A stretch of DNA of 61,570 nucleotides, filler included, from Candidatus Tectimicrobiota bacterium (lineage in GTDB: Bacteria; JACPSX01), in NCBI GenBank assembly GCA_016193065.1. It is 6 parts of 6 records of this genome, joined end to end, with 100 filler letters (N's around TTAATTAATTAA, not from the genome) between each part and the next. Parts side by side here need not be neighbours in the genome. Positions count along the whole stretch, not along the records: positions 1 to 17,287 come from JACPSX010000269.1; 5 more parts are not named here. One strand, 5' to 3'. The notes beneath the pieces were generated by a model, which made no database searches, had not been told where the DNA came from, and saw only the letters and a program-made list of their open reading frames with translations. Positions 1 to 58,446 of this stretch are shown here, one piece after another (position 1 is the first letter of the stretch; every line of letters begins with the position of its first letter). A program made the translations under genes and the position numbers.

Positions 1-547
1 TCCCCGGCAAGAACATGGCCGGAATTTTTTCCTTGTAGAGGCGGTAACTCTGGCCGAACTTCCGCTCCATCCTTCCTTCTTCGTTGCGGGCCAGGAGGTA
101 GTACACGAACAACATCGTGATGTAGGCCACAAGAATGAAGAAGCGAGGCCAGTACAGGAGGAGCCCCAACCCCGCGATCCCGAGTCCCAGGTACTGTGGG
201 TGGCGAACATGCGCGTAGAGCCCCTTGGTTACCACCCCCCGACGGAACAGCTTCGCCGAGTAAACCTGGGCGGCGCAGACAAAAAAGAGCAGCAGTCCCA
301 GGGCAAACAGGATGGGCCCCAGATAGGCAAGCAAGGTCAACAGCCCGTTGTCGCTTGCCGTGATATGGGGGAGAAAGAAAGCGGTGAGCCAGCTTGTCCA
401 GGGACTGGCTTCCAGCCGGTTGAGGACGGGGGCGTAGAGGGAGTAAAAATAGACGGTAAACGGGGTGATCATGATGATCACTTCCAGCCCGATGAGCAGG
501 TAAAACAGGATCACCGCTCCAGGTCCCGCCTTTTTCCAGATACTCAT
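1..547 (-). CDS. Isoprenylcysteine carboxyl methyltransferase/PEMT-family membrane protein (3' end beyond window)
   Basis: Not in ORF track; hand translation from ATG 547 gives MSIWKKAG..., several TM segments, GLYAHVRHPQYLG and EE..M.RKFGQSYRLYKEKIP motifs; GGAGGG RBS. Confidence 0.8.
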   Translation of the reverse strand, partial: MSIWKKAGPGAVILFYLLIGLEVIIMITPFTVYFYSLYAPVLNRLEASPWTSWLTAFFLPHITASDNGLLTLLAYLGPILFALGLLLFFVCAAQVYSAKLFRRGVVTKGLYAHVRHPQYLGLGIAGLGLLLYWPRFFILVAYITMLFVYYLLARNEEGRMERKFGQSYRLYKEKIPAMFLPG

Positions 548-673
548 GACCGTTTCTCCCTCCTCCGACTCCCTTCGGAGAAATTCCTTGGGGGCGGGTG
601 GGGCCAGGCCCGCCCTTCGGTCTGCCACAGTTTTGCTTTCCCTTGAGGCCCCGCGTTCAACATTGCAGACCGA

Positions 674-856
674 TTAGTGTCCGTGCTTGTCGCCGATGTG
701 TGACGGAGACTTCGGAGCCAGGTACTTTTCCGGGTTCTTCAAGAAGGTCTCCTTGCAACCCTTCGCACAAAAGTAGTACGTCTTACTCTGATGCATCGCC
801 GTGGCTGCGGCCTTCTTCTCGTCCACCTCCATCCCGCAGACTGGATCCTTGGCCAT
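674..856 (-). CDS. YHS-domain small metal-binding protein
   Basis: MAKDPVCGM...YYFCAKGC motif; GGAGGTG RBS before ATG 856; His-rich tail. Confidence 0.9.
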   Translation of the reverse strand: MAKDPVCGMEVDEKKAAATAMHQSKTYYFCAKGCKETFLKNPEKYLAPKSPSHIGDKHGH

Positions 857-1127
857 TCTCATCACCTCCTTTCCGCTGATGAATCAACATGCTCCCTGAA
901 CCCTTCCTCTTTTCTTGATCCTCTAAACTTCCACCACTGCAAACTCCAAGGCATACCAGAAGCAACGCTCCAAACAGGGCTGCTGCCGCGAGGCCTCCGA
1001 TCTTCCACCCGAAAAGCGGAACAACAACCAAAGCAATCAGGACCAGGCTGCAGACCCACAGCATGAGGGTCATCCACATGACAGGCCCGCAGAGACCCTT
1101 GCGCCTCAGCGACCCCAAAGAGAACAT
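783..1127 (-). CDS. Hypothetical two-TM membrane protein
   Basis: Two hydrophobic stretches and purine-rich RBS; its 3' end overlaps the YHS gene, so the end is uncertain. Confidence 0.5.
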   Translation of the reverse strand: MFSLGSLRRKGLCGPVMWMTLMLWVCSLVLIALVVVPLFGWKIGGLAAAALFGALLLVCLGVCSGGSLEDQEKRKGSGSMLIHQRKGGDENGQGSSLRDGGGREEGRSHGDASE

Positions 1128-1152
1128 GGAATCCCCCTTCCATGCTGCTTTG

Positions 1153-1368
1153 CTACCCCTGGACCTTCTTCTTGAAGTACGAGGTGATCAGGGGCATGGT
1201 GACGATCATGGAAAGGATAAAGACCCAGATCGCTCCCCCGGTTCGCGCCGCCAGGGGATAGCTGCCCACCAGCCCACTGGCGATGAAAAAGGCCAGGGTC
1301 AATCCCAGGGAAGTCCCCGTGTAGGTGAAAGCGCTCCGCGTGGCGACTCGATCTTCGCTTCTTGCCAT
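1153..1368 (-). CDS. Small hypothetical two-TM membrane protein
   Basis: 71 aa, two TM helices, AAGGAG RBS, directly downstream of copA. Confidence 0.7.
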   Translation of the reverse strand: MARSEDRVATRSAFTYTGTSLGLTLAFFIASGLVGSYPLAARTGGAIWVFILSMIVTMPLITSYFKKKVQG

Positions 1369-1393
1369 GAGAATTTCTCCTTCCCGGCCGGAA

Positions 1394-3958
1394 TCACTTC
1401 ACCGACGGAACCTGAGCGAATTCCCCGAGCAGCGGTTCCGCCTTTTGTTCCCCTCTCTTGATGGACGGGGAAAACCGCTTGAGCAGCAGTGTGTTCAACG
1501 TGACCGTGACGGAACTGACCGCCATGAGAAGGGCCGCCAGCTCGGGGCTCACGACCAGCTTGAAGAACGGATAGAAAAGCCCGGCCCCGATGGGGATACT
1601 GGCCGTGTTGTAGGCAAAGGCCCAAAAGAGGTTCTGCTTGACCTTGCGCATGGTGGCCTTGGCTACTTCCAGGGCTACAACCACATCCCGCAGGTCCTCC
1701 TTGATCAGGATCACATGCCCCGTCTCTTTGGCCACGTCGGTCCCCGAGCCAATGGCCATCCCCACGTCGGATTGGGCCAGGGCCGGCGCATCGTTGATCC
1801 CGTCTCCCACCATGGCGACCTTCTTCCCTTCGGACTGGAGCTTCTTCACCTCGGCTGCCTTATCGTGGGGGAGAACCTCGGCCAGGAGCCGATCGATCCC
1901 TACCTGGCGGGCAATTGCCTGCCCCGTGCGGCGGTTATCTCCCGTGATCATGATGACCTCAAGCCCGAGCTTCTTCAGGAGGCTTACCGCTTCCTTGGAA
2001 TGCTCCTTGACGGTATCCGCCACCGCAATGAGTCCTGCCGCCTTTCCTTCCACAGCCAAAAACATGGCCGTCTTGCCGTCGTCTTCCAGCGCCTCTGCTT
2101 TCCCCAGCAGAGGCTCGATGTGGATCTCCCGCTCGACCATGAGCTTGCGATTTCCCAGGAGGATGCTCTGGTCTCTGTACCGGGCAACGACCCCGTGACC
2201 CGGAATCGCCTCAAAGGAATCCGCATCGGGAACTATCAGGCCATACTCTCGAGCCCCTCCGAAAATGGCCTCCCCCAAAGGGTGCTCCGAATTTTTCTCG
2301 GCGATGGCCGCCAGCTCGAGGACGTCCTCCTGGCGGAACCCGTTCGTTCCAATCACATCCGTCACGGAGGGCTCTCCCCGGGTCAGCGTCCCTGTTTTGT
2401 CGAAGATGATGGCTTGCAGCTTGCTGGTGGCCTCAATTGCATCCGCTCCCTTGAACAGAACCCCGTGCTCGGCCCCTTTTCCCGTTCCTGCCATCATGGC
2501 CGACGGGGTTGCCATTCCTACCGCGCAGGGACAGGAGATGACCAGAACCGTGATGGAGAGGAGAATGCTAAAGCCAAAGACACCGATGGCTCCCAGTTGA
2601 TTGGGAGTTAAAAGGAAGCGCGAGGCCGGATCAAAAAAGAGCCCGTAGCCCGCAAAAAACCAAAACAGGAACACGGTGAGGGCCAGGATGTGAACCCCCA
2701 GGATAAAATGTCCGGCGACCCAATCGGCCAGTTTCTGTATGGGGGCCTTGCTGGCCTGCGCGTCCTCCACCAGCCGGATGATCTGAGCCAGAGCCGTCTC
2801 CTTCCCCACCTTGGTCGCCCGGAATTTGAAGGCCCCGGTTTTATTCATGGTGCCGCCGATCACTTCATCTCCACTCTTCTTCTCGACGGGAAGACTCTCC
2901 CCCGTCAGCATTGATTCGTCCACAGCCGAGTAGCCCTCGATCACCAGGCCGTCCACAGGGATCCTCTCTCCCGGCCGGACCAGGACGATGTCCTCGGCCA
3001 CCACTTCGTCGGCAGGAAGTTCGATTTCCTGCCCGCCCCGGATCACCCGGGCCACCTTGGGCTGCAGGGCCATCAGACGGCGGATTGCCTCGGAGGTGCG
3101 GCCCCGAGTAAGCGCTTCCAGCCAGCGCCCCAGTATAATGAAAGCCGTAAGCAGAGCCGCCGATTCAAAAAAGACTGCCTTCTCCCCGCCAAAACCCGCA
3201 TCGGGCCAGAAGGTGTTGACCACTCCGATCAGATAAGCCGCCCCGATTCCTGTAGCGTAGAGCAGGTTCATGTCCGTGACCCCGCGCCTGAGCCCGTTGA
3301 AGCTGTTCTTGAAGAACTGCAGGGCGGGACCCAGGATCACCGGAGTAGTCAGGAGAAATAGGACAAGGCGATCGGCCAGAAACTCGGGCACGAAGCGCGG
3401 GAAGATCCAGTATTCCCGAAAAGTCCCCAGCATGATCACGAAAGAAAGAGGCCAGGCGACCAGCATCCAGTTCCCCTGCTTGCGGATCTCCCTCTGGCGC
3501 GCTTCCCGCTCGCGGTCCATGAGGGCAGCCCCTTCCAGCTTTTCGGAAGCTTCGTAGCCCAGGCCCTTGATGGTTTCCTTCATTTCGGCCAGGGAGGTCA
3601 GATCGGAGAAGTACTGGACCTTGGCAAGACCGGCGGCAAAGTTGACCAGTGCTTTACTGACACCGGGGAAACTCTTAAGAGCCCCCTCGATGGTCTCCGC
3701 ACAGGAGACACAGCTCATGCCGCTAACATTTAAAGAGACTTCCTCGGGGACCACCTCGTAGCCCACACCCGCAACGCTGCCGGCAATCTCCTGGATCCCA
3801 ACCCGACTGGGATCGTAGGCCACCTGTAATTTCCCGGCGGCGAGGTTCACGCTCGCCTTTGAAACTCCGGGAGTGTTCCCGACGGCTCCCTCAATGGTTG
3901 CCACGCAGGACGCGCAGCTCATTCCCTCGACTCGCAAGGTCACGCTCTTCGTCGCCAT
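1394..3958 (-). CDS. copA: Cu(I)-translocating P1B-type ATPase
   Basis: Two GMSCxxC metal-binding domains, [24 protein letters not shown] and MxxSS motifs; GGAGG RBS before ATG 3958. Confidence 0.95.
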
Positions 3959-3993
3959 ATTCATCCTCCGTATGACGAATGCAACCACTCCAC

Positions 3994-4028
3994 CCCCTCT
4001 CCCTTGAGGGAGAGGGCAAGGGTGAGGG
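3994..4028. repeat. REP-like palindromic repeat
   Basis: Hairpin CCCTCTCCC-TTGA-GGGAGAGGG with GGGTGAGGG tail; related copies at 9321, 9832, 29497. Confidence 0.65.
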
Positions 4029-4032
4029 TGGT

Positions 4033-4578
4033 TCACGCCCTGTCAGGCCCTGCGGGCTGCAGATCTTCCTCGTCGCAATGGTCCACAGGTGCCCCTCCGG
4101 GAACCTCTCTCCCGGGCTCGCTGGAGGCGGTGGTCATCAGCTTCTCGCACTTCTCCCGCTGCTCCGGCGTCAGGAGGGCTTGCGCCTGCAGGATGCCCCG
4201 GATCCGCTGGATCTGCAGGTCCGCTCGCCTTCTCTCCGCTTGCCGAATTTTTGCCTCAATGGTGGCAAGGTCTGCGGAGCCACCTTCTACCAAAGCCATG
4301 ATCTCATCCTGCTGTTGAATCATCTCCTGCTGGGCCTGGCGGGCAGCTCCCTCGAAATCTGCGCGCAACTTCTCAAGCTCGCTTACCTGAGTTTCCGTAA
4401 GCCCCAGACGATCCTTGAACTGGATCATCCAGGTGATCGGCTGGCCCGAGAAAATGGCCCTATGAGAAATCCCACCCGATCCTTTGCTACCACCAGCCTC
4501 CTGGGAAAACCCGTAAGCCCCAACCCCCATGACTCCCAGCAACAGGACAGCCAGCAACCCAATCTTGATCCTCCCCAT
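4033..4578 (-). CDS. Periplasmic Spy/CpxP/ZraP-like protein
   Basis: Signal peptide, LGLTETQ and LTPEQR motifs, helical coiled-coil; AAGGAG RBS before ATG 4578. Confidence 0.8.
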
Positions 4579-4645
4579 GTCTTTTTCTCCTTCTTTCTTC
4601 ATGATTCCTCGCTAGCGGGCCCCGACCTGACTCGCTTGACAGGCC

Positions 4646-4909
4646 CTAAGCCTTGCTCTCCCGAACCTGAAACAGGTTATAGAGAGGGACCAAAACAAAG
4701 GCGGTGTAGATTCCGTACAGGAAGGTCACCACCAGGCCCAGGAAAAAGCTCCCCCATGTCAAGCTCTGATATCCCGGGATCAAGAATCTCCACAGCCCTT
4801 CCATGGACAGGGACGGGAAGAGAAGATCCCAGAGGCTGCAGAGAACGAAAGTAACGGCAAAAAAGGCGCTCAGTGCATGGGCGACCTGCCTGAATTTGAG
4901 CCGGTTCAT
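4646..4909 (-). CDS. Small membrane protein, DUF5676-like
   Basis: Two TM segments, ends PLYN; family recalled from heavy-metal clusters. Confidence 0.6.
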   Translation of the reverse strand: MNRLKFRQVAHALSAFFAVTFVLCSLWDLLFPSLSMEGLWRFLIPGYQSLTWGSFFLGLVVTFLYGIYTAFVLVPLYNLFQVRESKA

Positions 4910-4939
4910 CGTCACTTCCTCCCTAACGTCGCGGGGATC

Positions 4940-5321
4940 TCAGAAGGCCCTCTGGGTCCAGCCGGTCTGTTTGTTGATCTGGACTTTTTCCACCAGGGAA
5001 TTGTCCCTGGTCACGATCTCCACTTCAAAGATCCCGTCCTTCTCGGTCACGTTCCCGATCTTCAGATTCGGGTTGCCGTACCCGTTTAGCTGGTTCTGAA
5101 CCAGGGCTGTGGCCTGCTCCTTGGTCAAAGGCTGCCCGGTAGCCGGGGAGCCCCAGTAGCTCCCCATCATGCCTCCCCCCCATCATTCCCCCCCCCCTCA
5201 TGCTGTGCCCCATCCCGTAACCCGGGCCATCTCCTCTGCCGTAACCGAAACCCTGGGCATAGGCCAGGGTGCCTGCTGCCAGGACAGCCGCCGCGGCCAC
5301 TGCGATGATCCCTTTCTTCAT
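4940..5321 (-). pseudogene. Exported Gly/Met-rich PepSY-like protein, frameshifted in a G tract
   Basis: Signal peptide and GYGMG repeats (ORF from 5321) join the ...EVEIVTRDNSLVEKVQINKQTG frame (4940-5170) if one G is removed from the run at 5175-5181. Confidence 0.75.
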
Positions 5322-5447
5322 CTTTCTTCCTCCTTGTTTTCCGCCCCATCTCGTGCAGGAGGCTGGTTCCTCCCCTCCATGAGTTTCTCACTCTGCACGG
5401 GAGTATCTCCTGAACCTCAAACCCTACCCCCCTAGGCTATTTGATTT

Positions 5448-5463
5448 TGCAAGCCCTGTGCCA
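5448..5463 (-). promoter_or_regulatory. Sigma-54 (-24/-12) promoter of the copper operon
   Basis: Minus strand TGGCAC-AGGGC-TTGCA, matches TGGCAC-N5-TTGCW. Confidence 0.85.
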
Positions 5464-5554
5464 CGAGACTCCATGACTGTGTCCTTGTAACCATTTAAAA
5501 ACACGCGTCTTTAGGGGCAAGTGGAAGGGAACCCCCAGAGGCCCAGGTGAGAAA

Positions 5555-5608
5555 TGACATTTTGGCGAAAAAGACCGCTTGCCGGCCTTCCCAGGGGACT
5601 TTTCGTCA
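5555..5608. promoter_or_regulatory. Paired candidate enhancer (bEBP) sites
   Basis: TGACATTTTGGCG (5555) and GGACTTTTCGTCA (5596), 41 bp apart; same layout at 12948-13001. Confidence 0.65.
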
Positions 5609-5645
5609 CACGAGGGAAGAACGGCACCGGACCCAGAAGAAATCC

Positions 5646-5674
5646 TTGATCCTCTGTAATCTATAGACTACAAT
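5646..5674 (+). promoter_or_regulatory. Sigma-70-type promoter for the PIN/UPF0175 pair
   Basis: TTGATC-N17-TACAAT just upstream of ATG 5694. Confidence 0.5.
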
Positions 5675-5693
5675 ATGCTACAGGGGGTTTTTA

Positions 5694-6152
5694 ATGGATG
5701 CGGATTGTTTGATTAAACTGACCAAAGCCGGGCTCAAGGAATCCATTGGCAAACATGTCGCGATCGTGATTCCGGAAATGGTCCAGAGAGAGGTTGTCGA
5801 GGCCGGTAAAGACAAAGGATACCCTGACGCTGCCCTGGTAGAGAGAAATATCGCTGCAGGGCTGATACAGATCACTGGGAAATCCTCCTCTCACCGCAGC
5901 GGGGATGACGCCCTTGTAACTGTTTTTCAAGGAGAAGAGTACGATGCTGTGGCAACTGATGACAGGAAACTGACCCGTATCCTGAAAGCAGCGAACGTCC
6001 CTTTCATCTTGCCCGGCTTGATTCTTTACTCTCTCAAACAACAGGGACTGATGAATCAAGAAACCGCTTTGAGAAGTCTGGATCAATTGGCTCCTTTCAT
6101 CAGCAATGATGAATACAGCACTGTGAGATTATTGCTGGAGGGAAGATCATGA
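5694..6152 (+). CDS. PIN-domain protein (putative toxin)
   Basis: N-terminal DAD, V..EVV, GD and ATDD acidic motifs typical of PIN folds. Confidence 0.7.
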   Translation: MDADCLIKLTKAGLKESIGKHVAIVIPEMVQREVVEAGKDKGYPDAALVERNIAAGLIQITGKSSSHRSGDDALVTVFQGEEYDAVATDDRKLTRILKAANVPFILPGLILYSLKQQGLMNQETALRSLDQLAPFISNDEYSTVRLLLEGRS

Positions 6153-6433
6153 ATGTAAAATCCCTAAGAATTCCCGAAGACATCGAAAAGGCCATTGAAT
6201 ACGTGGCGAAGGTTGAGAAGATCGAAAAAAGTCAATCCCTGCGAAAACTCACGCGCATCGGGTTCGAGTGCTACGTGGCGAAATCCTACGAGGCCGGAAA
6301 GCTGACTCTCTGGGAAGCAGGGAAACTTTTGAAACTGCCCCTTTCGGGAACTCTCGACCTCCTGGCGGAAATGGGGGTCAAGGGGAACATCCGGTCCAGC
6401 GAAGTCTTGGAAAGCCTGAGAACGATCCCGTGA
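6149..6433 (+). CDS. UPF0175-like putative antitoxin
   Basis: RHH-like N-terminus and YEAGKLTLWEAGKLL motif; ATGA overlap with PIN gene. Confidence 0.7.
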   Translation: MNVKSLRIPEDIEKAIEYVAKVEKIEKSQSLRKLTRIGFECYVAKSYEAGKLTLWEAGKLLKLPLSGTLDLLAEMGVKGNIRSSEVLESLRTIP

Positions 6434-6490
6434 GTACCGGCTGCAACCTTTGTTCAGGATCTACTTGCTATAGCCGGTGAAAAACGCGGT

Positions 6491-6958
6491 CTAGTCAGTC
6501 TGCTCCGCGAGATAGTTCTGAAGCCCCATTTGCTTGATCTGGTCATGCTGGGCTTCGATCCAGTCGATATGATTCTCTTCGTCCTTGAGAATCGACTCGA
6601 ACAGATCCCTGGTACCGTTGTCACCCACCTCGACAGCCAAACGGATCGCCTCGTTGTACTCCCGGACCGCGGAATCCTCGCTGGCCCAATCGTTTGCGTG
6701 TTGCGCTTCCACCGCCGCGCCGATCTTCACCTCTTTCAGAACACCGACAACGGGAGAACCCTCGAGGAACAGGATGCGCTCAATCAGCCTCTCCGCGTGC
6801 TTCATCTCGTCGATCGCCCGCTTCTTGATTCCATTCTTCAGCCGCTCATACCCCCAGTTGTCGCACATCTCGGCGTGAACGATGTATTGATGAATCATGG
6901 TCAACTCCGAGGACAGGATATCGTTCAGCTTCGCTATGATCTTTTCGTTGCCCTTCAT
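6491..6958 (-). CDS. bfr: Bacterioferritin
   Basis: MKGNEKII start, ferroxidase DEMKHA and EENH motifs, GLQNYL C-terminus. Confidence 0.93.
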   Translation of the reverse strand: MKGNEKIIAKLNDILSSELTMIHQYIVHAEMCDNWGYERLKNGIKKRAIDEMKHAERLIERILFLEGSPVVGVLKEVKIGAAVEAQHANDWASEDSAVREYNEAIRLAVEVGDNGTRDLFESILKDEENHIDWIEAQHDQIKQMGLQNYLAEQTD

Positions 6959-6987
6959 GAGTTCATCTCCTCGAAAACAAGTTTCCT

Positions 6988-7086
6988 CTACGACACAACC
7001 GCCGCGTGGTCGAACGCAGTCCAGTTGACCGGCAGCACATCGAACCGGATGTCCTCCATCACCTCTTGCAGTAAAACGCACGCCAT
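6988..7086 (-). pseudogene. Stub resembling a type III restriction (Res) subunit N-terminus
   Basis: MACVLLQEVMEDIRFDVLPVNWTAFD then early stop; similarity recalled, not searched. Confidence 0.4.
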
Positions 7087-7090
7087 CTTG

Positions 7091-7348
7091 TCACTCAGCT
7101 TCCATCGTCAGTATGTCTTCGATTTTCTGAAGAAAACGTGGAAGCTCCTCTCTGGCGATCGTCCACACAATCTCATAATTGATGCCAAAGTAGTGATGAA
7201 TCATTTTGTCCCTCACGCCTGCCAGGTCTTTCCAAGGAATTTGGGAATACCTCTTCCTCAAACGGCTGGAGAGATTCTTCGCCGCCGCAATGCGCTGTAT
7301 CGCCTCCTGGATATCGCTGAGGAAGTCCTGATCTCTTCGCTTAGACAT
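7091..7348 (-). CDS. hepT: HepT/DUF86 HEPN RNase toxin with internal in-frame deletion
   Basis: IPW and RDKMIHHY (RX4HXY) present; only 85 aa, the DAVIRNLEIIGE-type segment is absent. Confidence 0.8.
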   Translation of the reverse strand: MSKRRDQDFLSDIQEAIQRIAAAKNLSSRLRKRYSQIPWKDLAGVRDKMIHHYFGINYEIVWTIAREELPRFLQKIEDILTMEAE

Positions 7349-7664
7349 ACCTCAACGTCCTTTGGATGTCGCCAGCAATGCGTTTGTATCGAGGGTTTTC
7401 CAGACTCCGATGCAGAGTATCAAAGGTCGCCAGGTCCACCTTTCTGCCTAATGTCTCTTCAAGATAGTAAGCCAATCCGACAAACTCCAGCCCAAGTGGT
7501 TTTACAAGCTGGACTAGGATGTCAACGTCGCTTTTCGTTGTGGGGGAGCCTTTCGCAAACGAGCCGTAGAGGGCTATTCTTTCCACGCCATACTTGTCCC
7601 GCAAATATGGCAGTTCTTTCCTCAAGATTTGCATGACTTGTTCTTTGGTCAGTGACTTTTTCAT
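7341..7664 (-). CDS. mntA: MntA-type minimal nucleotidyltransferase antitoxin
   Basis: GSFAKG...SDVD (GSX10DXD) and GRKVDL motifs; overlaps hepT start. Confidence 0.88.
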   Translation of the reverse strand: MKKSLTKEQVMQILRKELPYLRDKYGVERIALYGSFAKGSPTTKSDVDILVQLVKPLGLEFVGLAYYLEETLGRKVDLATFDTLHRSLENPRYKRIAGDIQRTLRYV

Positions 7665-7674
7665 AGTCTCACTG

Positions 7675-7889
7675 TCACCACCAGATCAGCGGTTTGACCC
7701 GCTTCCAGTCCAGGTTCTTGTTGTCCACCACCTCGCCGCCCTCGAATTCCACCGAGCTTGCCCTGAGAGCATTCGAAGGGTCGGCGCTAATGCGCTTGAT
7801 CCACTTGCCCGTCAGGTTGGTCAGCGTCTCGCCAATATCAATGCCGTCGGACAGTCTCCTCAAGTCCACCTGGACCGTGTTTTTCTTGG
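7675..7889 (-). pseudogene. 3' remnant resembling a type III DNA methyltransferase (Mod) C-terminus
   Basis: IDIGETLTNLTGKWIKRI...VEFEGG...KPLIWW*; cut off at the element starting 7890; similarity recalled, not searched. Confidence 0.45.
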
Positions 7890-8245
7890 TGTCACAAGCC
7901 TATTCTTATAATATTGTCCATCACTGCCGTCCAAATTAGCCGAAAACCCGGCTCTTGGACAAGCTAACATGCTGATTTACAAGGGCACCGGTGCTCCGTC
8001 CAAAGTCAGGCCCCCAGGACTCGCAGAATGCTGTCCAAATTGCGGGGGGCACCCCTGGGTCCGACCGAATCGTCCCGAATGGGCCAGAAAGCCCGTCTGC
8101 GGCCCTTCTGGGAGCATTGAGCAGGGCACTGTGCCGCCTGCGGTGTGTCGTATGCTGTCCAAGATATGACTTGGCGAACCCTAATTTGGACAAGAGTGAT
8201 TGTCCATCACTTGTAAAGAATACGTTGAAGGTCAGGGCTGTGACA
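7890..8245. mobile_element. Non-autonomous element or transposon-end relic with TGTCACA termini
   Basis: TGTCACAAGCC...GGCTGTGACA ends, repeated GTCCAA/TTGGAC motifs inside; no transposase or TSD. Confidence 0.45.
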
Positions 8246-8406
8246 AACACAGCACGCATTTCGGCCTGATCGGTCTCACTGTGGGCAGGGAGTTTGCCGC
8301 AGCCCGAAGTCATCGCGGGCCAGGAATCCATCTGCAGCCGGGATTGAGAATGTGGGCGTAGAGGGTACAGCCCGGCGAGATCCTGAAGAACGAGATAAAG
8401 GCCGAT

Positions 8407-9297
8407 CTACCTCAGCGGTTTGCCGCACTGGCCGCAGAAGCGGTCACCGGCGTCCAGTGGAGATCCGCAGCGGGTGCAGAAGCGGGCAGTCCGATCCGCT
8501 TTCTTGGCTTCTCCGGTCGCAGCCGTTGGGGTCCCTGGGGTCTGCGCACTCTGGCGCCTTCTGCGGCTCATAGTGGCAAATCCGCCAATGGCGATTACCG
8601 CAATTGTAGTCCCCACGGCCAGGTAAACATACGGGGATTTGCGTACTTCCTTCACCGGCACCTTTTCGCCGCCGACCTCTTTCTTGACGGAAGGTTTGCG
8701 GTCGCTCTTCGTGTAGGCGATCTTCAGGGACACATCCTTTCCGGGAGCGAGGTTCTCGAAGCCCAGGTGGGCGTAGTTGAACCCCTGCTGGTCCCCAAAA
8801 ACATTTGCCGGTTTGGGCTCCACCTGAAAATTCTCGGAGCGCAACGGTTGCTGCACATCCACGGCCAGCCTCTCCACGGGATAGGCAAGCTTCAGGAAGG
8901 GTACAATTTCCCGCCGCGTGTCACCCTTTACCCCGTCAAAGTAGTACTCCATCCGGAAGCGGGGCTCGGGCAGGTTGTATTTGACTTTCTTGACTCCCTT
9001 CTCTTCCGCAATCTCCCAGGTCTGGCAGAGATGTTCTTCTTTTTCCGTCATCGCGCAGGCTTCCGTCACCTCGGCCCCCGGAGGAAGGTAAAACACGACG
9101 GAGGAAGGCTTCCCCGTGTTTTGGGAAAAGACTCCCTCATACATCACCAGGACCCTGGGGTCGTCGTACTCGGGCCAGACGGAAATCTTGAGTTCTGAAA
9201 TCTTGTAAGCCGGAGATCCCTGCGCGTTGTCCCCCAGCAGGCCGATGAAGAGGAAAACACCCAGCAGGAACGCCGTCGCGGCAACTCTCTCCTTCAT
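8407..9297 (-). CDS. Exported/membrane protein with C-terminal double zinc ribbon
   Basis: Signal peptide, WPEYDDPRVLV domain, TM helix, CTRC...CGQC; AAAGGAG RBS before ATG 9297. Confidence 0.8.
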   Translation of the reverse strand: MKERVAATAFLLGVFLFIGLLGDNAQGSPAYKISELKISVWPEYDDPRVLVMYEGVFSQNTGKPSSVVFYLPPGAEVTEACAMTEKEEHLCQTWEIAEEKGVKKVKYNLPEPRFRMEYYFDGVKGDTRREIVPFLKLAYPVERLAVDVQQPLRSENFQVEPKPANVFGDQQGFNYAHLGFENLAPGKDVSLKIAYTKSDRKPSVKKEVGGEKVPVKEVRKSPYVYLAVGTTIAVIAIGGFATMSRRRRQSAQTPGTPTAATGEAKKADRTARFCTRCGSPLDAGDRFCGQCGKPLR

Positions 9298-9320
9298 GCT
9301 CTCATCTCCTTTGACAACGC

Positions 9321-9380
9321 CCCTCACCCTCCCCTCTCCCCGGGTACCCCGGGTGCCCTTTGGGCGTTGCGGCGAGGGGG
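9321..9380. repeat. REP-like palindrome with GGGTACCC/GGGTGCCC insert in loop
   Basis: CCCTCACCCTCCCCTCTCCCC-[GGGTACCCCGGGTGCCC...]-GGCGAGGGGG. Confidence 0.6.
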
Positions 9381-9803
9381 TCAAGATGTGACAATGGCAG
9401 CCAGCTCAGCGCCACAAATGCGGCAGAAATGATCCCCAGCCCCCCGCGGTGTCCCGCACTGGGCGCAGAATCGGGCTTCACCGCGGTGATTGTCGATGGC
9501 ATCCATCACCTGTTCGTCCACCAGGCCCCTCTTTTGGGTTGTCCGGTCGATTTGCTCCAGCAACGTGAGGGCCTTGAGACGATAGCGATCCTTGAGCTCT
9601 CCATAGTCTTTGGCGTCAATCTTCCCCATGCGGTGGTCAAGCTCCAGGTCCTTGAGAGCCGCGTAGACCACCTCCTTTTCAGACTCCAGGGCCTCCAATT
9701 CCTTCTTCCCTTGAGACCTCGGAGAAACCGCCGGGCGCACGAGAGGCCAGCCGACGAATGCCAGCGTCCCCAACACCAGGGTCACGATTAGTACCGTCTC
9801 CAT
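9381..9803 (-). CDS. CcmI-N-terminus-like membrane protein with zinc ribbon
   Basis: N-terminal TM, LKDLELDHRMGKIDAKDY motif, CAQC...CRIC. Confidence 0.75.
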   Translation of the reverse strand: METVLIVTLVLGTLAFVGWPLVRPAVSPRSQGKKELEALESEKEVVYAALKDLELDHRMGKIDAKDYGELKDRYRLKALTLLEQIDRTTQKRGLVDEQVMDAIDNHRGEARFCAQCGTPRGAGDHFCRICGAELAAIVTS

Positions 9804-9831
9804 TGTCCTCTCCTCAGAAATCTCTTGATCA

Positions 9832-9901
9832 CCCCCACCCTGACCCTCCCCGCACGCCCCGGGTACCCTCTGGGTGCCACCCGGGGTACCCGGGGGGAGG
9901 A
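9832..9901. repeat. REP-like palindrome with nested GGGTACCC inserts
   Basis: CCCCACCCTGACCCTCCCC-[..GGGTACCCTCTGGGTGCCACCCGGGGTACCC]-GGGGGGAGG. Confidence 0.6.
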
Positions 9902-9944
9902 ATCCGAGTTTTTCCCTCCTCCTGGGGAATGGGCAGGGGGCTTT

Positions 9945-10415
9945 TCAGTCAAAATCCTTAAGCTCGGCCTCCATGCGCCTCTGATAACGCTCCTCCAGAC
10001 GGGCGAGGTCTTCGCCGCCCAGAGCGTCAGAGGCCGCGGGCTGCCGGGAAGCCCAGCGCCGAACCACAGCGAAGATCGCTCCGCCAGCCACCAGAATCGC
10101 GGCAAATGGGGTGAGCCAGGCGGTCAGGTTGAACCCCTTCTTGGTGGGCGCTGCCAGCAGCTTCTCCCCGTAGTTGTCGATCATGTACGCGACGATCTTG
10201 GGCTTGTCCCAGCCCTGCTCAATCTTAGTGGCAATGACCTTGCGGAGCTGCTCACCGCACTCCATATCGCAGACCGGCAGGAGGTTGTTGCAGCCGCAGT
10301 TGCAGATGAAGTCCTTCCCCACATCCCGAACGGTCAAAGTCGCAGCCATGGCGGGAGAAGAGAGCAAAAGAGTCACCAGGAACCCGATCACGAACACCGG
10401 CTCAGACCAGCGCAT
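9945..10415 (-). CDS. ccmH: Cytochrome c biogenesis protein CcmH/NrfF-like
   Basis: Signal peptide, Cys cluster, YGEKLLAAP...GFNLTAWLTP motif, C-terminal TM; downstream of ccmF. Confidence 0.8.
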   Translation of the reverse strand: MRWSEPVFVIGFLVTLLLSSPAMAATLTVRDVGKDFICNCGCNNLLPVCDMECGEQLRKVIATKIEQGWDKPKIVAYMIDNYGEKLLAAPTKKGFNLTAWLTPFAAILVAGGAIFAVVRRWASRQPAASDALGGEDLARLEERYQRRMEAELKDFD

Positions 10416-12393
10416 TTTCGGGTACCTCCCTGGGAACGGCGGGAACCGACCGGAAGGTCTTACGGGGACGCTCGCTTCCCATGACCACCAGAATCCCAAA
10501 GCCCATGACGTAGGTGCCGATCCACATCCACATCATCAAGGGATTGACCAGAACCCGGAAAGATGCCCCTTGCGGGTCATAGCCCGCCAGGATCACGTAG
10601 AGATCTTCCTTCAGGTTGCTGCGGATGGCGACCATCCCGTGGGGTTGTTCGGAGCCCGGATGAAACTGCTTCTGGGGCAAAAGGGTCTGCAGGAACTTCC
10701 CTCCTTTGTAGACTGCCATCCGGGCCGCCACAATCATCGTGTCCCCCTTGGGGTACCCGACCAGGTTCTCGTACTTGAGGGTATAGGGGCCGATCTCCAG
10801 CGATTCCCCCTTCTTCACATAGCCCTCCTTCTCAACCTTGAAGGCTCCGCCGGCAACGGCCAAAACCAGGAGGAGAATCCCCAGGTGGATGATATAGCCG
10901 CCGTAGCGCCTCTTGTTGCGGGATACCAGATTGGAGAACGCCTTCACGAAGCTCTCCCCCGTCATGTGGGCCCGGGCCCGCGTCCCCCGGTAGAACTCGG
11001 TTCCGATAGTGATTCCAATGAAGAGGAGGAGCCCGAAAGTGACATTGACGAGAGGGTCTCGAACCCCCGAAACGGGAATGAGGAGAACAGCGCCCAGAAG
11101 AGCCGTCAGGAAGGGCAGGAGAAAGTTTCGCTTGAGGTTGGACCAGGAAGCCCGCCGCCAGGCAATCAGGGGGCATACCCCGGTGAGAAACAGCAGTGCG
11201 ATCCCGATGGGGATCATGACCTGGTTAAAGAAGGGGGGCCCCACAGTGACCTTCACGCCGCGAACGGCCTCGGCAATCAGCGGGTAGAAGGTCCCCCACA
11301 AGGTTGTAAACGCCACCCCCACGAGAAGGAGGTTGTTCACCAGGAAACTCGTCTCGCGGGACACGAGCCCGTCGAGCTCATTTTTGCTTCTGAGTTCCGG
11401 CAGGCGATAGAAGAGGAGCCCCAGGGAAACCAGAAGGACGACCGCCAGGAAGCCCAGGAACAAGGGGCCAAGGCCCGTCTGGGAGAAGGTGTGGACCGAG
11501 GACAGGATGCCGCTGCGGGTAAGAAACGTGCCCAGGATCGAGAGCCCGAAGGTGGCAATGATGAGGACCATGTTCCAGACCTTGAGCATATCTTTCTTTT
11601 CCTGGATCATCACCGAGTGCAGATAGGCTGTCCCCGTGAGCCAGGGCAGAAACGAGGCGTTTTCCACGGGGTCCCAGGCCCAATAGCCTCCCCAGCCCAG
11701 AACTTCATAGGCCCACCAGGCCCCGAACATGTTTCCCAGGGTCAAGAAGAACCAAGTGACCAGTGTCCAGCGCCGGGTGCTGCGGATCCACTCGTCCCCC
11801 AATCTCCCCGTGATCAATGCCGCCATGGCAAAGGCAAACGGAATTGTGAACCCCACGTAACCAATGTAGAGAGTCGGAGGGTGAAAGAACATGCCCGGGT
11901 TCTGCAGCAGAGGGTTGAGCCCATGGCCATCGGGAGGCGGCACGGGAACCGGTGTAAACGGGTTCGAAAAGAAATTGAGGACTGCTAGAAAGAAAATCGA
12001 GACGCCCATGTTGGTGGCCATCACGTAAGGCATGAGTTCCCTGTGCCGGTAGCGGTTTTGCAGGGTCACAACGGCTACAAAGATGGAGAGCATGAAGCTC
12101 CAGAACAGCAGTGAGCCGTCCTGCCCGCCGTATAGGGCCGATACCTTGTATGCGAGGCCCTGGCCCTTTCGAGAATAGTTCATCACATAGGCCAGGCTGA
12201 AGTCGTCCCGCAGGAAGGCCGCCAGCAGTGCCAGAGTGGAAACCCCGAGGAGGAAGGCAAGGGCCAGGGAGGCCTGCTCCGAGGAGCGCACCAATTCAGG
12301 CCGTTTTTTCAGATGCCCCAGCAGCGCCGCCGCCCCCGCATAGGCAGCCACAGCCAGTGACAGGAGAAGGGAAAATTCTCCAAGGGTGTTCAT
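10402..12393 (-). CDS. ccmF: Cytochrome c heme lyase CcmF/NrfE
   Basis: WWD motif WGGYWAWDPVEN, LNPLLQ, HPP, TRSG...SVHTF; GAAGGAG RBS before ATG 12393. Confidence 0.95.
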   Translation of the reverse strand: MNTLGEFSLLLSLAVAAYAGAAALLGHLKKRPELVRSSEQASLALAFLLGVSTLALLAAFLRDDFSLAYVMNYSRKGQGLAYKVSALYGGQDGSLLFWSFMLSIFVAVVTLQNRYRHRELMPYVMATNMGVSIFFLAVLNFFSNPFTPVPVPPPDGHGLNPLLQNPGMFFHPPTLYIGYVGFTIPFAFAMAALITGRLGDEWIRSTRRWTLVTWFFLTLGNMFGAWWAYEVLGWGGYWAWDPVENASFLPWLTGTAYLHSVMIQEKKDMLKVWNMVLIIATFGLSILGTFLTRSGILSSVHTFSQTGLGPLFLGFLAVVLLVSLGLLFYRLPELRSKNELDGLVSRETSFLVNNLLLVGVAFTTLWGTFYPLIAEAVRGVKVTVGPPFFNQVMIPIGIALLFLTGVCPLIAWRRASWSNLKRNFLLPFLTALLGAVLLIPVSGVRDPLVNVTFGLLLFIGITIGTEFYRGTRARAHMTGESFVKAFSNLVSRNKRRYGGYIIHLGILLLVLAVAGGAFKVEKEGYVKKGESLEIGPYTLKYENLVGYPKGDTMIVAARMAVYKGGKFLQTLLPQKQFHPGSEQPHGMVAIRSNLKEDLYVILAGYDPQGASFRVLVNPLMMWMWIGTYVMGFGILVVMGSERPRKTFRSVPAVPREVPENALV

Positions 12394-12411
12394 GAGGATC
12401 TCCTTCAAGCC

Positions 12412-12804
12412 TCAATTGCCATAGGGGTTGCGATAGCTCGGCACGCTGACCCGGAAGTGAGCAGCAGCGGGAAGCTGTTGCACTGAAGTGTGAAAGGGAA
12501 CACTCCCGCGAGGCGGAATCCCCTCGATCTGGGCTTTGCTTTCCCCGACCTTCTCGTGGGAGCTGCTGAAGAACTCCACTTGAACCTCCACATGCTCCAC
12601 CGGGTTTCTCAGGCGATTGGTGACAATCCCCGACACCCAGACTTTCCCACCTTCCTTGGAAAACCGGGTTTCGTTGACGCCGATCTCAGCGGACCGGGTA
12701 GAAGACCAGGCCAGATAGACGACGAAGACGACGGGAAGCAGAATCCAGAGAACTTTCTTGAATCTGCGATCTCCCCTCTCCTTGCCGCTGTTTTCCGTTT
12801 CCAT
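12412..12804 (-). CDS. Membrane-anchored FxLYD-like beta-sandwich protein
   Basis: Single TM, then V.G.VTN...V.VQVEFF...I.P.GSVPF pattern. Confidence 0.6.
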   Translation of the reverse strand: METENSGKERGDRRFKKVLWILLPVVFVVYLAWSSTRSAEIGVNETRFSKEGGKVWVSGIVTNRLRNPVEHVEVQVEFFSSSHEKVGESKAQIEGIPPRGSVPFHTSVQQLPAAAHFRVSVPSYRNPYGN

Positions 12805-12839
12805 GCCCTGCCCCTAAATCAAGGTCCTCACCGCTTTCT

Positions 12840-12855
12840 AGCAAACAAGATGCCA
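12840..12855 (-). promoter_or_regulatory. Sigma-54 promoter of the ccmF operon
   Basis: Minus strand TGGCAT-CTTGT-TTGCT. Confidence 0.85.
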
Positions 12856-12947
12856 TGGAAAAATTTCGGAACAGCACCGTAATCACTGATGAAAGAAGGA
12901 ACTTGCTATTCGCCCGCGACGGCAGTGGAGCCGAAAGCGACGGCTCT

Positions 12948-13001
12948 TGACAATCTGGCAAAAACAGCGCAAAGACCCGCCGCCGTCTCGACATTTTGGC
13001 A
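12948..13001. promoter_or_regulatory. Paired candidate enhancer (bEBP) sites
   Basis: TGACAATCTGGCA (12948) and CGACATTTTGGCA (12989), 41 bp apart. Confidence 0.65.
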
Positions 13002-13129
13002 AGCCAAGATTACGTCCTCGCTGTTGGAGATCCGAAGTACCGGCGCCTGATCGGCTTTGATCCGTCTCTAAGTAGAAGTTTTCTAACGTCCCTTACGAGC
13101 TTCCGGGCCCGGGCGACCGGGAGGGAGAA

Positions 13130-13145
13130 CGGCAGGAAACTTGCA
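13130..13145 (+). promoter_or_regulatory. Divergent sigma-54 promoter of the selenoprotein operon
   Basis: CGGCAG-GAAAC-TTGCA (GG-N10-GC). Confidence 0.65.
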
Positions 13146-13188
13146 TACCCGCAACCGGTGTCAGAGCTGTTTGTAATGTACCGATCCA

Positions 13189-13749
13189 ATGGGAGGACCT
13201 ACTGTGTCAGTGAAAAGCTCCAGAAGGAGATACCGCATCAATTACTGGCTGTTTTTCCCTGTTCTTGGCGCTCTGCTCCTCGCGGCCATTCCCCCGCAGG
13301 CGGAAGCCGGGCCGAAGCAACTTCCCCTTCCCACAACTCTTGGCGAGATGCGCCTGGACCACTCCCTCCAGGGACAGGAGGCCCTCAAGGATATCTTCCG
13401 CCTGCACGGCAAGACCTTTGATCTCAAGGACGGTTACGTAGGCCACTACAGCAACAAGGCTGCCAAGGCCATGGTCTGGGTGTCAGAGTCCAAGAACCAG
13501 GACCAGTCCCGGCAGCTCTTGCAAATGATGGCGGCGGAAATCCGCCGCGGGCGCGGCCCTTACAGCAATTTTCAGGAGTTTGACGTCAACGGCAAAGTCG
13601 TCTACTCCGTGGATGGCCAGGGGCAGCAACACTACTTCTACGGCTCGGGCAAGCGGAACGTCTGGCTCGCCGTGGACCCCCCAGCAGCACAGAAGGCCCT
13701 CCACGAACTTTTGATGAAAATCAAACCCTTCGAAGTAACCAAGCCATGA
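13189..13749 (+). CDS. Exported hypothetical protein
   Basis: Signal peptide ending AEA, soluble domain; ATGA-coupled to next gene; true start may be GTG 13210. Confidence 0.75.
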   Translation: MGGPTVSVKSSRRRYRINYWLFFPVLGALLLAAIPPQAEAGPKQLPLPTTLGEMRLDHSLQGQEALKDIFRLHGKTFDLKDGYVGHYSNKAAKAMVWVSESKNQDQSRQLLQMMAAEIRRGRGPYSNFQEFDVNGKVVYSVDGQGQQHYFYGSGKRNVWLAVDPPAAQKALHELLMKIKPFEVTKP

Positions 13750-14324
13750 AGCGCCGCAGCATCTTCTGGATTGTTGTTCCGCTGGTTCTTTTGTTTCTTG
13801 GTCTGCTGGGACGCAGCACGCTGATCAAGGCCAAACAGCAACAGCGCACAGCAGAAGGCTACCAGGTCTTCGCCAAGATCCTCAAGGACAGGCGTGAGGC
13901 CCCCGAGCTTTCCCTGAAGCTCCTGGGGGGAGGGCCGGCCGACCTGCGCGAGTTCCGCGGCCGGGTCGTGATGCTCAACTTCCGGACCACCTGGTGACAC
14001 AGTTGTAAACAGGAGGGTCCTTCTGTAGAAAAACTCTTTCAGGAGCACAAAGGGCACCCCGATTTTGCCCTCCTTGCCGTCGATGTGGGGGAAGCCGAGG
14101 AGATTGTGGACCGCCGCTCCCGGGAGCTGGGATGGACCTTTCCCGTGCTCCTGGACAGCCGGGGCGAAATTTCGTCCCGATACGGGATCACTGGGCACCC
14201 GGAGACCTTCCTCATCGATAAGCAAGGACGCATCGCGGCCATGGCCATTGGACCCCGCAACTGGCAGAGCCCGGAGGCCGAGCGTCTCATTACTGCTCTT
14301 GTGAAGGAGGATCAGCCCTTCTGA
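13746..14324 (+). CDS. Membrane-anchored TlpA/ResA-like thiol-disulfide oxidoreductase, selenoprotein (Sec at TGA 13995-13997)
   Basis: ORFs 13746-13997 and 14085-14324 share a frame; read-through gives VMLNFRTTW-U-HSC-KQEGP...FPVLLD...GHPETFLID. Confidence 0.88.
14009..14026 (+). promoter_or_regulatory. Bacterial SECIS-like hairpin
   Basis: ACAGGAG-GGTC-CTTCTGT, 7-bp stem starting 11 nt after the UGA with a G-first loop. Confidence 0.75.
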
Positions 14325-17160: not shown

Positions 17161-17228
17161 TCGAGCGAAGCCTGCCTCTGGCTAGTGGAATGTCACCGAA
17201 GCTCGCTGTGTAGTAGCGTTCCGACCCC

Positions 17229-17287: not shown

Positions 17288-17387
17288 NNNNNNNNNNNNN
17301 NNNNNNNNNNNNNNNNNNNNNNNNNNNNNNNTTAATTAATTAANNNNNNNNNNNNNNNNNNNNNNNNNNNNNNNNNNNNNNNNNNNN
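17288..17387. other. Artificial contig spacer
   Basis: N run with TTAATTAATTAA six-frame stop linker. Confidence 0.99.
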
Positions 17388-29978: not shown

Positions 29979-30078
29979 NNNNNNNNNNNNNNNNNNNNNN
30001 NNNNNNNNNNNNNNNNNNNNNNTTAATTAATTAANNNNNNNNNNNNNNNNNNNNNNNNNNNNNNNNNNNNNNNNNNNN
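29979..30078. other. Artificial contig spacer
   Basis: N run with TTAATTAATTAA linker. Confidence 0.99.
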
Positions 30079-31271: not shown

Positions 31272-31450
31272 TGGACTTCTCCTCAGAGATTTCTATTAGA
31301 GGCTACGGAAGCTTTGACTTACAGTACTTCCAAGCCCTGACATACCCCTGGACCACCCGATTTTTGCTGCTTCCCGTTGGGACGTCCAGTACCATAATCT
31401 CAGGTATATGCTTCACAACGCATTCTCCTCCAGATCGTCGAGATTTTTCC

Positions 31451-34418: not shown

Positions 34419-34625
34419 GGTCCCCTCTAAGCTCCCCGACGGCAAACGCGGCTCGTGCCTCTCGAAGCTTCAATATGGGGACAAACCCCGGCCCGTCTCC
34501 CCAATTCGCTGATTTTGAGTCTTGCCTCCGGCATATGACCTCCTGAATCCAAGATTACTCATTCCAGTATAGAGATTCCGCCGCCTCACCGGGAGTCTCC
34601 GCAACCACGGGGACAGATCCCCAGG

Positions 34626-36655: not shown

Positions 36656-36755
36656 NNNNNNNNNNNNNNNNNNNNNNNNNNNNNNNNNNNNNNNNNNNNT
36701 TAATTAATTAANNNNNNNNNNNNNNNNNNNNNNNNNNNNNNNNNNNNNNNNNNNN
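36656..36755. other. Artificial contig spacer
   Basis: N run with TTAATTAATTAA linker. Confidence 0.99.
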
Positions 36756-55102: not shown

Positions 55103-55202
55103 NNNNNNNNNNNNNNNNNNNNNNNNNNNNNNNNNNNNNNNNNNNNTTAATTAATTAANNNNNNNNNNNNNNNNNNNNNNNNNNNNNNNNNNNNNNNNNN
55201 NN
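55103..55202. other. Artificial contig spacer
   Basis: N run with TTAATTAATTAA linker. Confidence 0.99.
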
Positions 55203-58346: not shown

Positions 58347-58446
58347 NNNNNNNNNNNNNNNNNNNNNNNNNNNNNNNNNNNNNNNNNNNNTTAATTAATT
58401 AANNNNNNNNNNNNNNNNNNNNNNNNNNNNNNNNNNNNNNNNNNNN
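58347..58446. other. Artificial contig spacer
   Basis: N run with TTAATTAATTAA linker. Confidence 0.99.

Follow-up and report, generated by a model that had tools for sequence, protein, structure and literature searches.

Sigma-54-controlled copper and envelope stress systems

Two described regulatory systems come closest to the locus reported here, which comprises three neighbouring operons at positions 1-14324 of a 61,570-nucleotide stretch of DNA (filler included; hereafter the window) from the Candidatus Tectimicrobiota bacterium assembly GCA_016193065.1, where genes for copper export, for the haem lyase subunits CcmF and CcmH and for a TlpA-like selenoprotein lie behind putative sigma-54 promoters. 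In Myxococcus xanthus, the two-component system CorSR has a sigma-54-dependent regulator and several putative sigma-54 promoters (PMC3707914). Its copper-induced targets resemble the present set in including a P1B ATPase CopA with a YHS domain and cell-envelope proteins, whereas the curA operon, in the available part of that account, carries a multicopper oxidase, a cupredoxin protein and a cytochrome c, is without ccmF/H, TlpA or Spy-like genes, and contains the regulator genes themselves (PMC3707914). The ZraSR-ZraP system shares with our locus an NtrC-family regulator (a candidate one here), divergent sigma-54 promoters on one regulatory region and a periplasmic chaperone target of the Spy/CpxP family, and it responds to metal and envelope stress, which is also the kind of signal that we infer for the window (PMC4987338). 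By contrast, the ZraSR regulon, as presented in the available part of that source, consists of only zraP and zraSR, and the ZraR enhancer sequence is listed there as not known (PMC4987338).

The assembly of c-type cytochromes is, by reported experiment, a main periplasmic target of copper (PMC4600104; bioRxiv 10.64898/2026.10.17.759849, available parts of both), and copper raises the DsbD/DsbE-type reducing route in Pseudomonas aeruginosa, DsbE being a CcmG-type thioredoxin (cited in the available part of bioRxiv 10.64898/2026.10.17.759849). Such copper-induced thiol-reduction pathways differ from the locus described here, where ccmF/H and accessory genes belong to the proposed regulon, and control would be by sigma-54, with a selenoprotein as the thioredoxin. 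Copper-induced periplasmic thiol reduction is also exemplified by Salmonella ScsABCD. The window also resembles the CcmFH(I)G part of cytochrome c maturation System I, in having a CcmF with a WWD motif, a CcmH with conserved cysteines and a TlpA/CcmG-like thioredoxin, and differs from it in that neither the window nor its close loci have ccmE, ccmB or ccmC nearby and in its extra partners (FxLYD and the proteins that we call ZnR2 and Exp181). Literature searches on ccmF with RpoN and copper, on sigma-54 with copper and cytochrome c maturation, and on Methylomirabilis with sigma-54 and copper turned up no earlier account of a regulon of this kind. That copper harms c-type cytochrome assembly and induces a DsbD/DsbE route is already in print; what is new is the content of the regulon (a haem lyase, accessory genes and a selenocysteine-type CcmG-like protein beside copper export), the site motif and the lineage.

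Promoters and paired activator sites in the window

A sigma-54 promoter was defined as a match to TGGCAC-N5-TTGCW with GG and GC elements exactly 10 bp apart, upstream of an operon and co-oriented with it; its activator was expected to bind approximately 80-200 bp upstream, and site positions were counted from the T of TGGCA. All three operons have such a site upstream and facing the same way (P1, P2 and P3; Table 1), in agreement with the -24/-12 promoters proposed in a first-pass annotation of this DNA, with zero, one and two mismatches, respectively. P1 lies approximately 125 nt upstream of the first ATG of the copA operon (5321), and the window has a single copy of its exact core, TGGCAC-N5-TTGC (0.10 expected). 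Sigma-70-like sites were not found ahead of any of the three arrays, P3 included.

Upstream of P1 and P2 lie TTGAC-N5-GTCAA-like site pairs in the same layout, as had been noticed at first pass, with 41 bp between the two sites of each pair and offsets of -144/-103 at P1 and -145/-104 at P2. The 11-mer GCCAAAATGTC has exactly two copies in the 61.5 kb, at -103 of P1 and at -145 of P2. The third operon was correctly placed by the first-pass annotation on the other side of the second pair: P3 points away from it, and the sites lie 143 and 184 bp off on the other strand.

These sites were scored with a weight matrix built from relatives, to which the window contributed nothing. The relatives were 80 loci returned by a CcmF scan of genome contigs, and the matrix used 17 of 20 sequence segments picked from five Methylomirabilota loci (L007, L009, L017, L033 and L036), the remaining three having been left out because fewer than seven of ten consensus positions matched. 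When 121,948 positions of the window were ranked, three of the four sites at P1 and P2 were the top three distinct sites (rank 3 being the P2 proximal site read on the opposite strand). The pairing is what sets the window apart from 200 dinucleotide-preserving shuffles of itself: single matches of at least 9 bits numbered 13 in the window and 11.3 in the shuffles, while pairs of matrix sites at 40-44 bp numbered three against 0.01 expected, and a pair with a sigma-54 site 95-120 bp downstream was seen at two places in the window and in none of the 200 shuffles.

The third of those pairs, two hits of approximately 9.5 bits 42 bp apart at 31271/31313 (31271-31329), has no sigma-54 site nearby, overlaps the start codon of an FGE-sulfatase/DinB gene and was set aside as chance. 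A plain palindrome count (TTGAC-N5-GTCAA, at least 8 of 10 positions) was discarded as uninformative, giving 12 matches in the window and 16.8 in the shuffles and missing the P1 sites.

Conservation of the architecture in relatives

The nearest named relatives by RpoA are Nitrospinota and Tectimicrobiota metagenome-assembled genomes (MAGs; 67-71% identity), and the window CcmF is closest to those of Methylomirabilota (64-71% identity), apart from that of locus L001, which is 92% identical and has the same divergent layout. Comparison with L001 reveals a footprint at P2 and P3. Each promoter is identical at 15 of 16 bases and each of the two sites at 16 of 17, so that promoters and sites together are 94% identical, while the stretch from P3 to the sites retains only 40 of 113 positions (35%). 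An 11-nt insertion in that stretch of L001 places the sites 12 bp further from P3, which is approximately one helical turn. This pattern, with promoters and sites kept and the spacer diverged, is the main support for P3 as a functional promoter.

Further away, the five Methylomirabilota loci hold ten sigma-54-like promoters with TTGAC-N5-GTCAA-like sites upstream, seven of them with a clear pair 41-43 bp apart, near -150/-110 or displaced by approximately 25 bp. The combination of a sigma-54 site and, 80-260 bp ahead of it, a matrix hit of at least 11 bits was found in the window and in 7 of the 80 loci: L001, the five Methylomirabilota loci and, as a borderline case, the Binatia locus L008. 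The same architecture, paired sites 41-43 bp apart (about four helical turns) and approximately 100-150 bp upstream, is kept before orthologous genes in the window's lineage and in Methylomirabilota.

The genes behind these promoters overlap with those of the window. In L009, one operon comprises DUF2933, Rieske genes, an Exp181 homologue, ccmF, ccmH, a ZnR1-like gene and DsbD_2 (CcdA-like), a second comprises a receiver-only regulator, an NfeD-like protein and a YHS protein, and a third promoter precedes a CsoR-like gene, DUF5676 and CopA; a divergent perfect sigma-54 site also precedes a CusA/CusB-type pump, without a nearby site pair of its own. In L007, such a promoter precedes a DegP/HtrA protease gene. 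In L033 and L036, the genes downstream encode a Met/Gly-rich secreted protein, a Cys-type TlpA with its own sigma-54 promoter and strong distal site, and then a long operon running through a PEMT-like methyltransferase, Exp181, ccmF and ccmH. L009 and L018 each repeat the linkage of copper genes with ccmF/H. In L009 (15620-16057) and L033 (17479-17937), regulon-type promoters are followed by genes for receiver-only response regulators, which may feed back on the phosphorelay.

L033 and L036 also provide a candidate activator, of the NtrC family as predicted at first pass, beside regulon promoters: the genes for a histidine kinase and a response regulator directly precede the first regulon promoter. 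A receiver domain, an AAA+ sigma-54 interaction domain with GAFTGA, and HTH_8 are recognised in the regulator, which is assigned to these sites by its position. By NCBIfam it is not an equivalog of any named activator, and its best scores, slightly higher for AtoC (485-488 bits vs. a cut-off of 714) than for ZraR (437-444 bits vs. 760), fall below the cut-offs; orthology to ZraR is thus not indicated.

A predicted sigma-54 stress regulon and its alternatives

Taken together, the relatives-only matrix, the L001 footprint, the five Methylomirabilota loci and the adjoining NtrC-type system in two of them favour the view, put forward in the first-pass annotation, that the three operons form one sigma-54 regulon under an NtrC-family response regulator encoded outside the window, to which we assign a probability of about 0.7. 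On sequence grounds co-regulation of the three operons is well supported, and since three neighbouring operons carry the same conserved activator sites and sigma-54 promoters, they probably constitute one stress regulon. A membrane histidine kinase would phosphorylate the regulator in response to periplasmic Cu(I), metal or envelope stress, a signal suggested by the gene content. The regulator would then assemble on the site pair and open sigma-54 closed complexes at P1, at P2 and, across the pair that P2 shares with it, at P3. One half of the predicted output would be copper handling (CopA, the Met-rich secreted protein, the Spy/ZraP-like chaperone, YHS, DUF5676 and the ICMT-like methyltransferase), and the other would be the thiol-dependent last steps of System I (CcmF, CcmH, the zinc-ribbon partner, the accessory proteins and the CcmG-like selenocysteine TlpA). 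Raising the second half may keep haem attachment running while copper attacks periplasmic thiols, which would give the regulon a protective role. If the regulon is indeed copper-responsive, it would constitute natural genomic evidence that some bacteria raise haem attachment and thiol reduction together with copper export. It also offers testable material: a motif for the activator (TTGAC-N5-GTCAA, in pairs spaced by 41-43 bp), a kinase and a regulator that are candidates in relatives, and the uncharacterised proteins Exp181, ZnR1 and ZnR2, which recur beside ccmF/H in several phyla.

Several observations weigh against this proposal. Because the training sites of the matrix came from Methylomirabilota, its counts in those loci are circular, and only the window and L001 serve as independent tests. 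Within the window, the P1 distal site scores lowest of the four (9.5 bits, rank 15), and sigma-54 matches with up to two mismatches are common (33 vs. 24 expected), which places P3 within a class expected by chance. The window lacks an activator gene: tblastn with the three two-component proteins of the relatives found nothing there, in line with the first-pass statement that the activator gene is not in the window. Nor was a sigma-54 factor (rpoN) domain found among the 62 window open reading frames (ORFs) covered by the Pfam scan, and an ARAGORN scan of the window found no tRNA, the selenocysteine (Sec) machinery likewise being absent from it. The copper-ccm cluster of L018 has neither a sigma-54 site nor a matrix hit of at least 11 bits nearby, and because L018 keeps the gene linkage without the sites, that linkage appears to be independent of sigma-54 control. 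The window CcmF/H looks like the ordinary haem lyase of its lineage, judging from its orthologues, and not like a stress-specific copy. Lastly, the kinase of L033 and L036 has only HisKA and HATPase_c behind a hydrophobic N-terminus (judged by eye), with no recognisable periplasmic sensor domain, such that direct periplasmic metal sensing is unindicated; given this domain content, the signal may be sensed in the membrane or via accessory proteins.

Some of these points would also suit a regulon that is real but serves respiratory-complex biogenesis, responding to redox, oxygen or copper supply rather than to stress, and coordinating haem attachment, Rieske and cupredoxin proteins, and copper trafficking. 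The Rieske proteins in the same Methylomirabilota operons, the L018 cluster with its cupredoxin and Rieske gene, the orthology of CcmF/H to housekeeping System I genes and the lack of an evident periplasmic metal sensor in the kinase are all compatible with such a programme. We nevertheless consider it unlikely, given that the Spy/ZraP-like chaperone, DegP, the Cus-type pump, the CsoR-like repressor and the P1B-1-type exporter are typical of detoxification and envelope stress.

The membership of the third operon can be questioned separately. Because matches with up to two mismatches are ordinary in the window, P3 needs further support, and it might be a chance match, with only P1 and P2 in the regulon and the Exp181/TlpA operon transcribed from an unrecognised promoter of another type; the distance of P3 from its sites, unlike those of P1 and P2, fits that idea. 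However, P3 is conserved in L001 beside a spacer that is 35% identical, the L001 insertion moves the sites by about one helical turn, no sigma-70-like site is present there, and in L033 and L036 TlpA is served by a separate sigma-54 promoter with a strong distal site. These points make a chance origin of P3 quite improbable. That the upstream regions resemble each other by chance or through a shared repeat, with no common regulator, is extremely unlikely: single matrix hits are as frequent in shuffles as in the window, but pairs with a promoter occur in none of the 200, the sites are kept across lineages while their flanks diverge, and the training set of the matrix is independent of the window.

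Two features near P3 stand apart from these arguments. A GC-rich imperfect palindrome at 13089-13126, just upstream of P3 and partly kept in L001, could be the site of another factor. A one-mismatch sigma-54-like site at 13450-13465 (minus strand), inside the Exp181 coding region and with a two-mismatch version in L001, was treated as chance, rough arithmetic giving approximately one expected match of this kind.

Table 1. Regulatory elements and genes of the three operons (positions in the window).
Feature	Position	Strand	Details
P1, sigma-54 (-24/-12) promoter, copA operon	5448-5463	-	TGGCACAGGGCTTGCA, 0 mismatches
P1 proximal activator site	5553-5569	-	at -103; includes GCCAAAATGTC; 12.6 bits, rank 4
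P1 distal activator site	5594-5610	-	GACGAAAAGTC; at -144; 9.5 bits, rank 15
P2, sigma-54 promoter, FxLYD-ccmF-ccmH operon	12840-12855	-	TGGCATCTTGTTTGCT, 1 mismatch
P2 proximal activator site	12946-12962	-	at -104; 19.0 bits, rank 2; common to divergent P3
P2 distal activator site	12987-13003	-	at -145; 21.4 bits, rank 1; common to divergent P3
P3, candidate sigma-54 promoter, Exp181/TlpA operon	13130-13145	+	CGGCAGGAAACTTGCA, 2 mismatches, GG and GC kept
Secreted Met/Gly-rich protein, C-terminal domain of uncertain family	4940-5321	-	two ORFs: 5025-5321, 4940-5170
DUF5676 protein, two transmembrane segments	4646-4915	-	Pfam PF18926, 36 bits; homologues adjoin copA in L009
Periplasmic Spy/ZraP/CpxP-family protein	4033-4602	-	Metal_resist 49 bits, LTXXQ 30.7 bits, both above cut-off
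CopA, Cu(I)-type P1B ATPase, two HMA domains	1394-4036	-	Pfam; TIGR01511 580.7 bits (cut-off 397)
71-aa hydrophobic ORF, uncertain gene	1153-1368	-	ORF list; no family
YHS-domain metal-binding protein	674-865	-	Pfam YHS 50.3 bits
PEMT/ICMT-like membrane methyltransferase	2-628	-	Pfam PEMT 33 bits; runs past window start
FxLYD-domain membrane protein	12412-12804	-	NCBIfam NF038353 32.3 bits (cut-off 23)
CcmF, haem lyase subunit	10402-12408	-	Pfam Cytochrom_C_asm and CcmF_C; WGGYWAWD (WWD motif), HPP and LHS present
CcmH, start codon uncertain	9945-10499	-	Pfam CcmH 72.2 bits; 4 Cys invariant in 10 homologues
ZnR1, transmembrane protein with C-terminal zinc ribbon	9381-9803	-	Pfam Zn_Ribbon_1
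ZnR2, 325 aa, transmembrane segment and C-terminal zinc ribbon	8407-9384	-	Pfam
Exp181, exported 181-aa protein, unnamed family	13204-13749	+	18 invariant columns in 15 sequences
Membrane-anchored TlpA/ResA/CcmG-like thioredoxin-fold selenoprotein	13746-14324	+	TWUHSC with TGA=U; Sec codon 13995-13997
SECIS-like hairpin, 7-bp stem, GGUC loop	14009-14026	+	starts 11 nt past UGA

The haem lyase module

The gene identities given in the first-pass annotation were borne out for DUF5676, Spy/ZraP, CopA, YHS, the methyltransferase, FxLYD, CcmF/H, the zinc ribbons, the exported protein and the UxxC TlpA, but not for a "PepSY-like" protein, for which Pfam gave no match. The haem lyase operon (minus strand, 12804 down to 8407) encodes a CcmF that is approximately 50% identical to the CcmF of complete ccm operons and scores 450 bits in the NCBIfam CcmF/NrfE subfamily, under its cut-off of 569. 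The genes ccmE, ccmB and ccmC are absent from the window and from within 10 kb in all 8 close loci, and in these same neighbourhoods no ccmABCDE was found that would supply holo-CcmE. Outside the close group, by contrast, all 68 loci have CcmE, as do three of the four actinobacterial loci. In the Nitrospina locus L043, the orthologues belong to a full System I operon (ccmE-F-H-(ZnR1-like)-A-B-C-tlpA). The evidence does not show the CcmF/H module to be an extra branch, its proteins having their orthologues in the usual Nitrospinota haem lyase of System I. In Nitrospinota loci (e.g., L043 at 9080 and L051 at 9030; approximately 8900-9100), a matrix hit of 12-19 bits without a sigma-54 site recurs some 1 kb ahead of ccmF; where mraZ is annotated (L043), the hit lies near it.

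The accessory genes recur more widely. ZnR1 homologues come after ccmH in most of the 80 loci, and ZnR2 homologues are found in the ccm loci of L001 and of four actinobacterial MAGs, where the gene order is ZnR2-Exp181-(CcmE)-CcmF-CcmH-ZnR1. In these four loci (L019, L028, L047 and L068; approximately 6000-13100), ccmF is preceded by ZnR2-like and Exp181-like genes (no Exp181-like gene being detected in L047) and followed by ccmH and a ZnR1-like gene. This suggests that the ZnR2-like and Exp181-like genes encode undescribed System I accessory proteins. Since Exp181, ZnR1 and ZnR2 are recurrent neighbours of ccm genes, the genes of the second and third operons would form one functional module irrespective of any shared control. 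A PDB sequence search with ZnR2 returned chance-level matches only.

A broader proposal can be made more tentatively. In the window's lineage and in Methylomirabilota, the thiol-sensitive end of cytochrome c maturation (CcmF, CcmH, the zinc-ribbon partner and the CcmG-like reductase) may have become separated from ccmABCDE and come under the control of a sigma-54 two-component system for copper/envelope stress, such that the capacity for haem ligation would act as an inducible repair function, with Exp181, ZnR2 and the FxLYD protein as undescribed System I accessory factors. The last element is suggested by the presence of all three in ccm loci of unrelated actinobacterial MAGs; the proposal as a whole we regard as possible, though doubtful.

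Exp181 and the UxxC TlpA selenoprotein

Exp181 is the first gene of the third operon (plus strand, 13204-14324). Among 120 candidate proteins, six match it at E <= 0.001, the window's own included, and its homologues adjoin ccmF in Methylomirabilota and actinobacterial loci. Fifteen sequences share 18 invariant columns, including H143. The fold in an Atlas model is PknH_C/DUF6599-like, and a PDB sequence search gave chance-level matches only. A role as a substitute for CcmE was rejected, as both genes are present in three of the four actinobacterial loci.

The TlpA-like gene has an in-frame TGA at the first Cys of WCxxC, and its Pfam AhpC-TSA match runs across the TGA. Among 29 loci with a homologue, this position is TGA in two (L001 and L068), Cys in 21 and uncovered in six. 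The TGA of L068, an actinobacterial ccm locus, is independent (17171-17173, the same WCxxC position) and is followed by a stable hairpin. In the window, the TGA and the next 44 nt (47 nt in total) are identical to those of L001. The short hairpin that resembles a Sec insertion sequence (SECIS) folds with z = -2.09, 5 of 200 shuffles being equally stable; a 66-nt fold past the UGA is no better than shuffles, and Rfam matched no family anywhere in the window, this hairpin included.

UxxC selenoproteins described as "thiol-disulfide isomerase-like" (TlpA-like, cd02966) and "Prx-like thiol:disulfide oxidoreductase" are listed in a review, which further describes a Methylomirabilota MAG in which 63 selenoprotein genes are predicted and, in its available part, mentions no link of UxxC selenoproteins to ccmF/H or a sigma-54 regulon (PMC13188914). 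Because the UxxC TlpA-like family is thus already listed and Methylomirabilota are reported to be rich in selenoproteins, Sec appears to be a trait of the lineage and does not define the regulon. In Methylomirabilota, the similarly controlled TlpA genes carry Cys, not Sec. The Sec-based reducing branch of the first-pass annotation consequently survives as a UxxC TlpA in the window and falls as a feature of the regulon.

The copper operon and other genes of the window

In the copper operon (minus strand, 5321 down to position 1), the first gene is frameshifted within runs of 10 and 7 G (5165-5205, minus strand), which could be a homopolymer assembly error or slippage-prone DNA; the L018 homologue is a single 103-aa ORF. 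The Met/Gly-rich protein that it encodes has no Pfam match, and a PepSY lead in the Atlas was weak. The Spy/ZraP-like protein has an N-terminal hydrophobic segment, its export signal being judged by eye. CopA has the motifs CPC, YN, MAVSS and DKTGT, of which we take YN and MxxSS to be a Cu(I) signature. Gaps are short inside all three arrays except in the copA-YHS stretch, which contains one or two small membrane ORFs. A YHS homologue in L009 (73% identical) lies downstream of a sigma-54 promoter with a site pair, and the methyltransferase shares 66-75% identity with the one whose gene directly precedes those of the Exp181 homologue and CcmF in L007, L017, L033 and L036.

Between the copper and haem lyase operons (5694-7664) lie a PIN-like/UPF0175 pair, a bacterioferritin gene and a HepT/MNT pair (toxin-antitoxin), none of these genes being associated with a regulon-type sigma-54 site. 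At 32001-35828 (minus strand) lie the genes for another HMA-type P1B ATPase (814 aa) and for a glutaredoxin-thioredoxin reductase fusion (400 aa), with neither a sigma-54 site nor a matrix hit of at least 11 bits near them. Two runs of 44 N with 12 bases between them occur at each of 17288-17387, 29979-30078, 36656-36755, 55103-55202 and 58347-58446, all of them intergenic and outside the operons described here.

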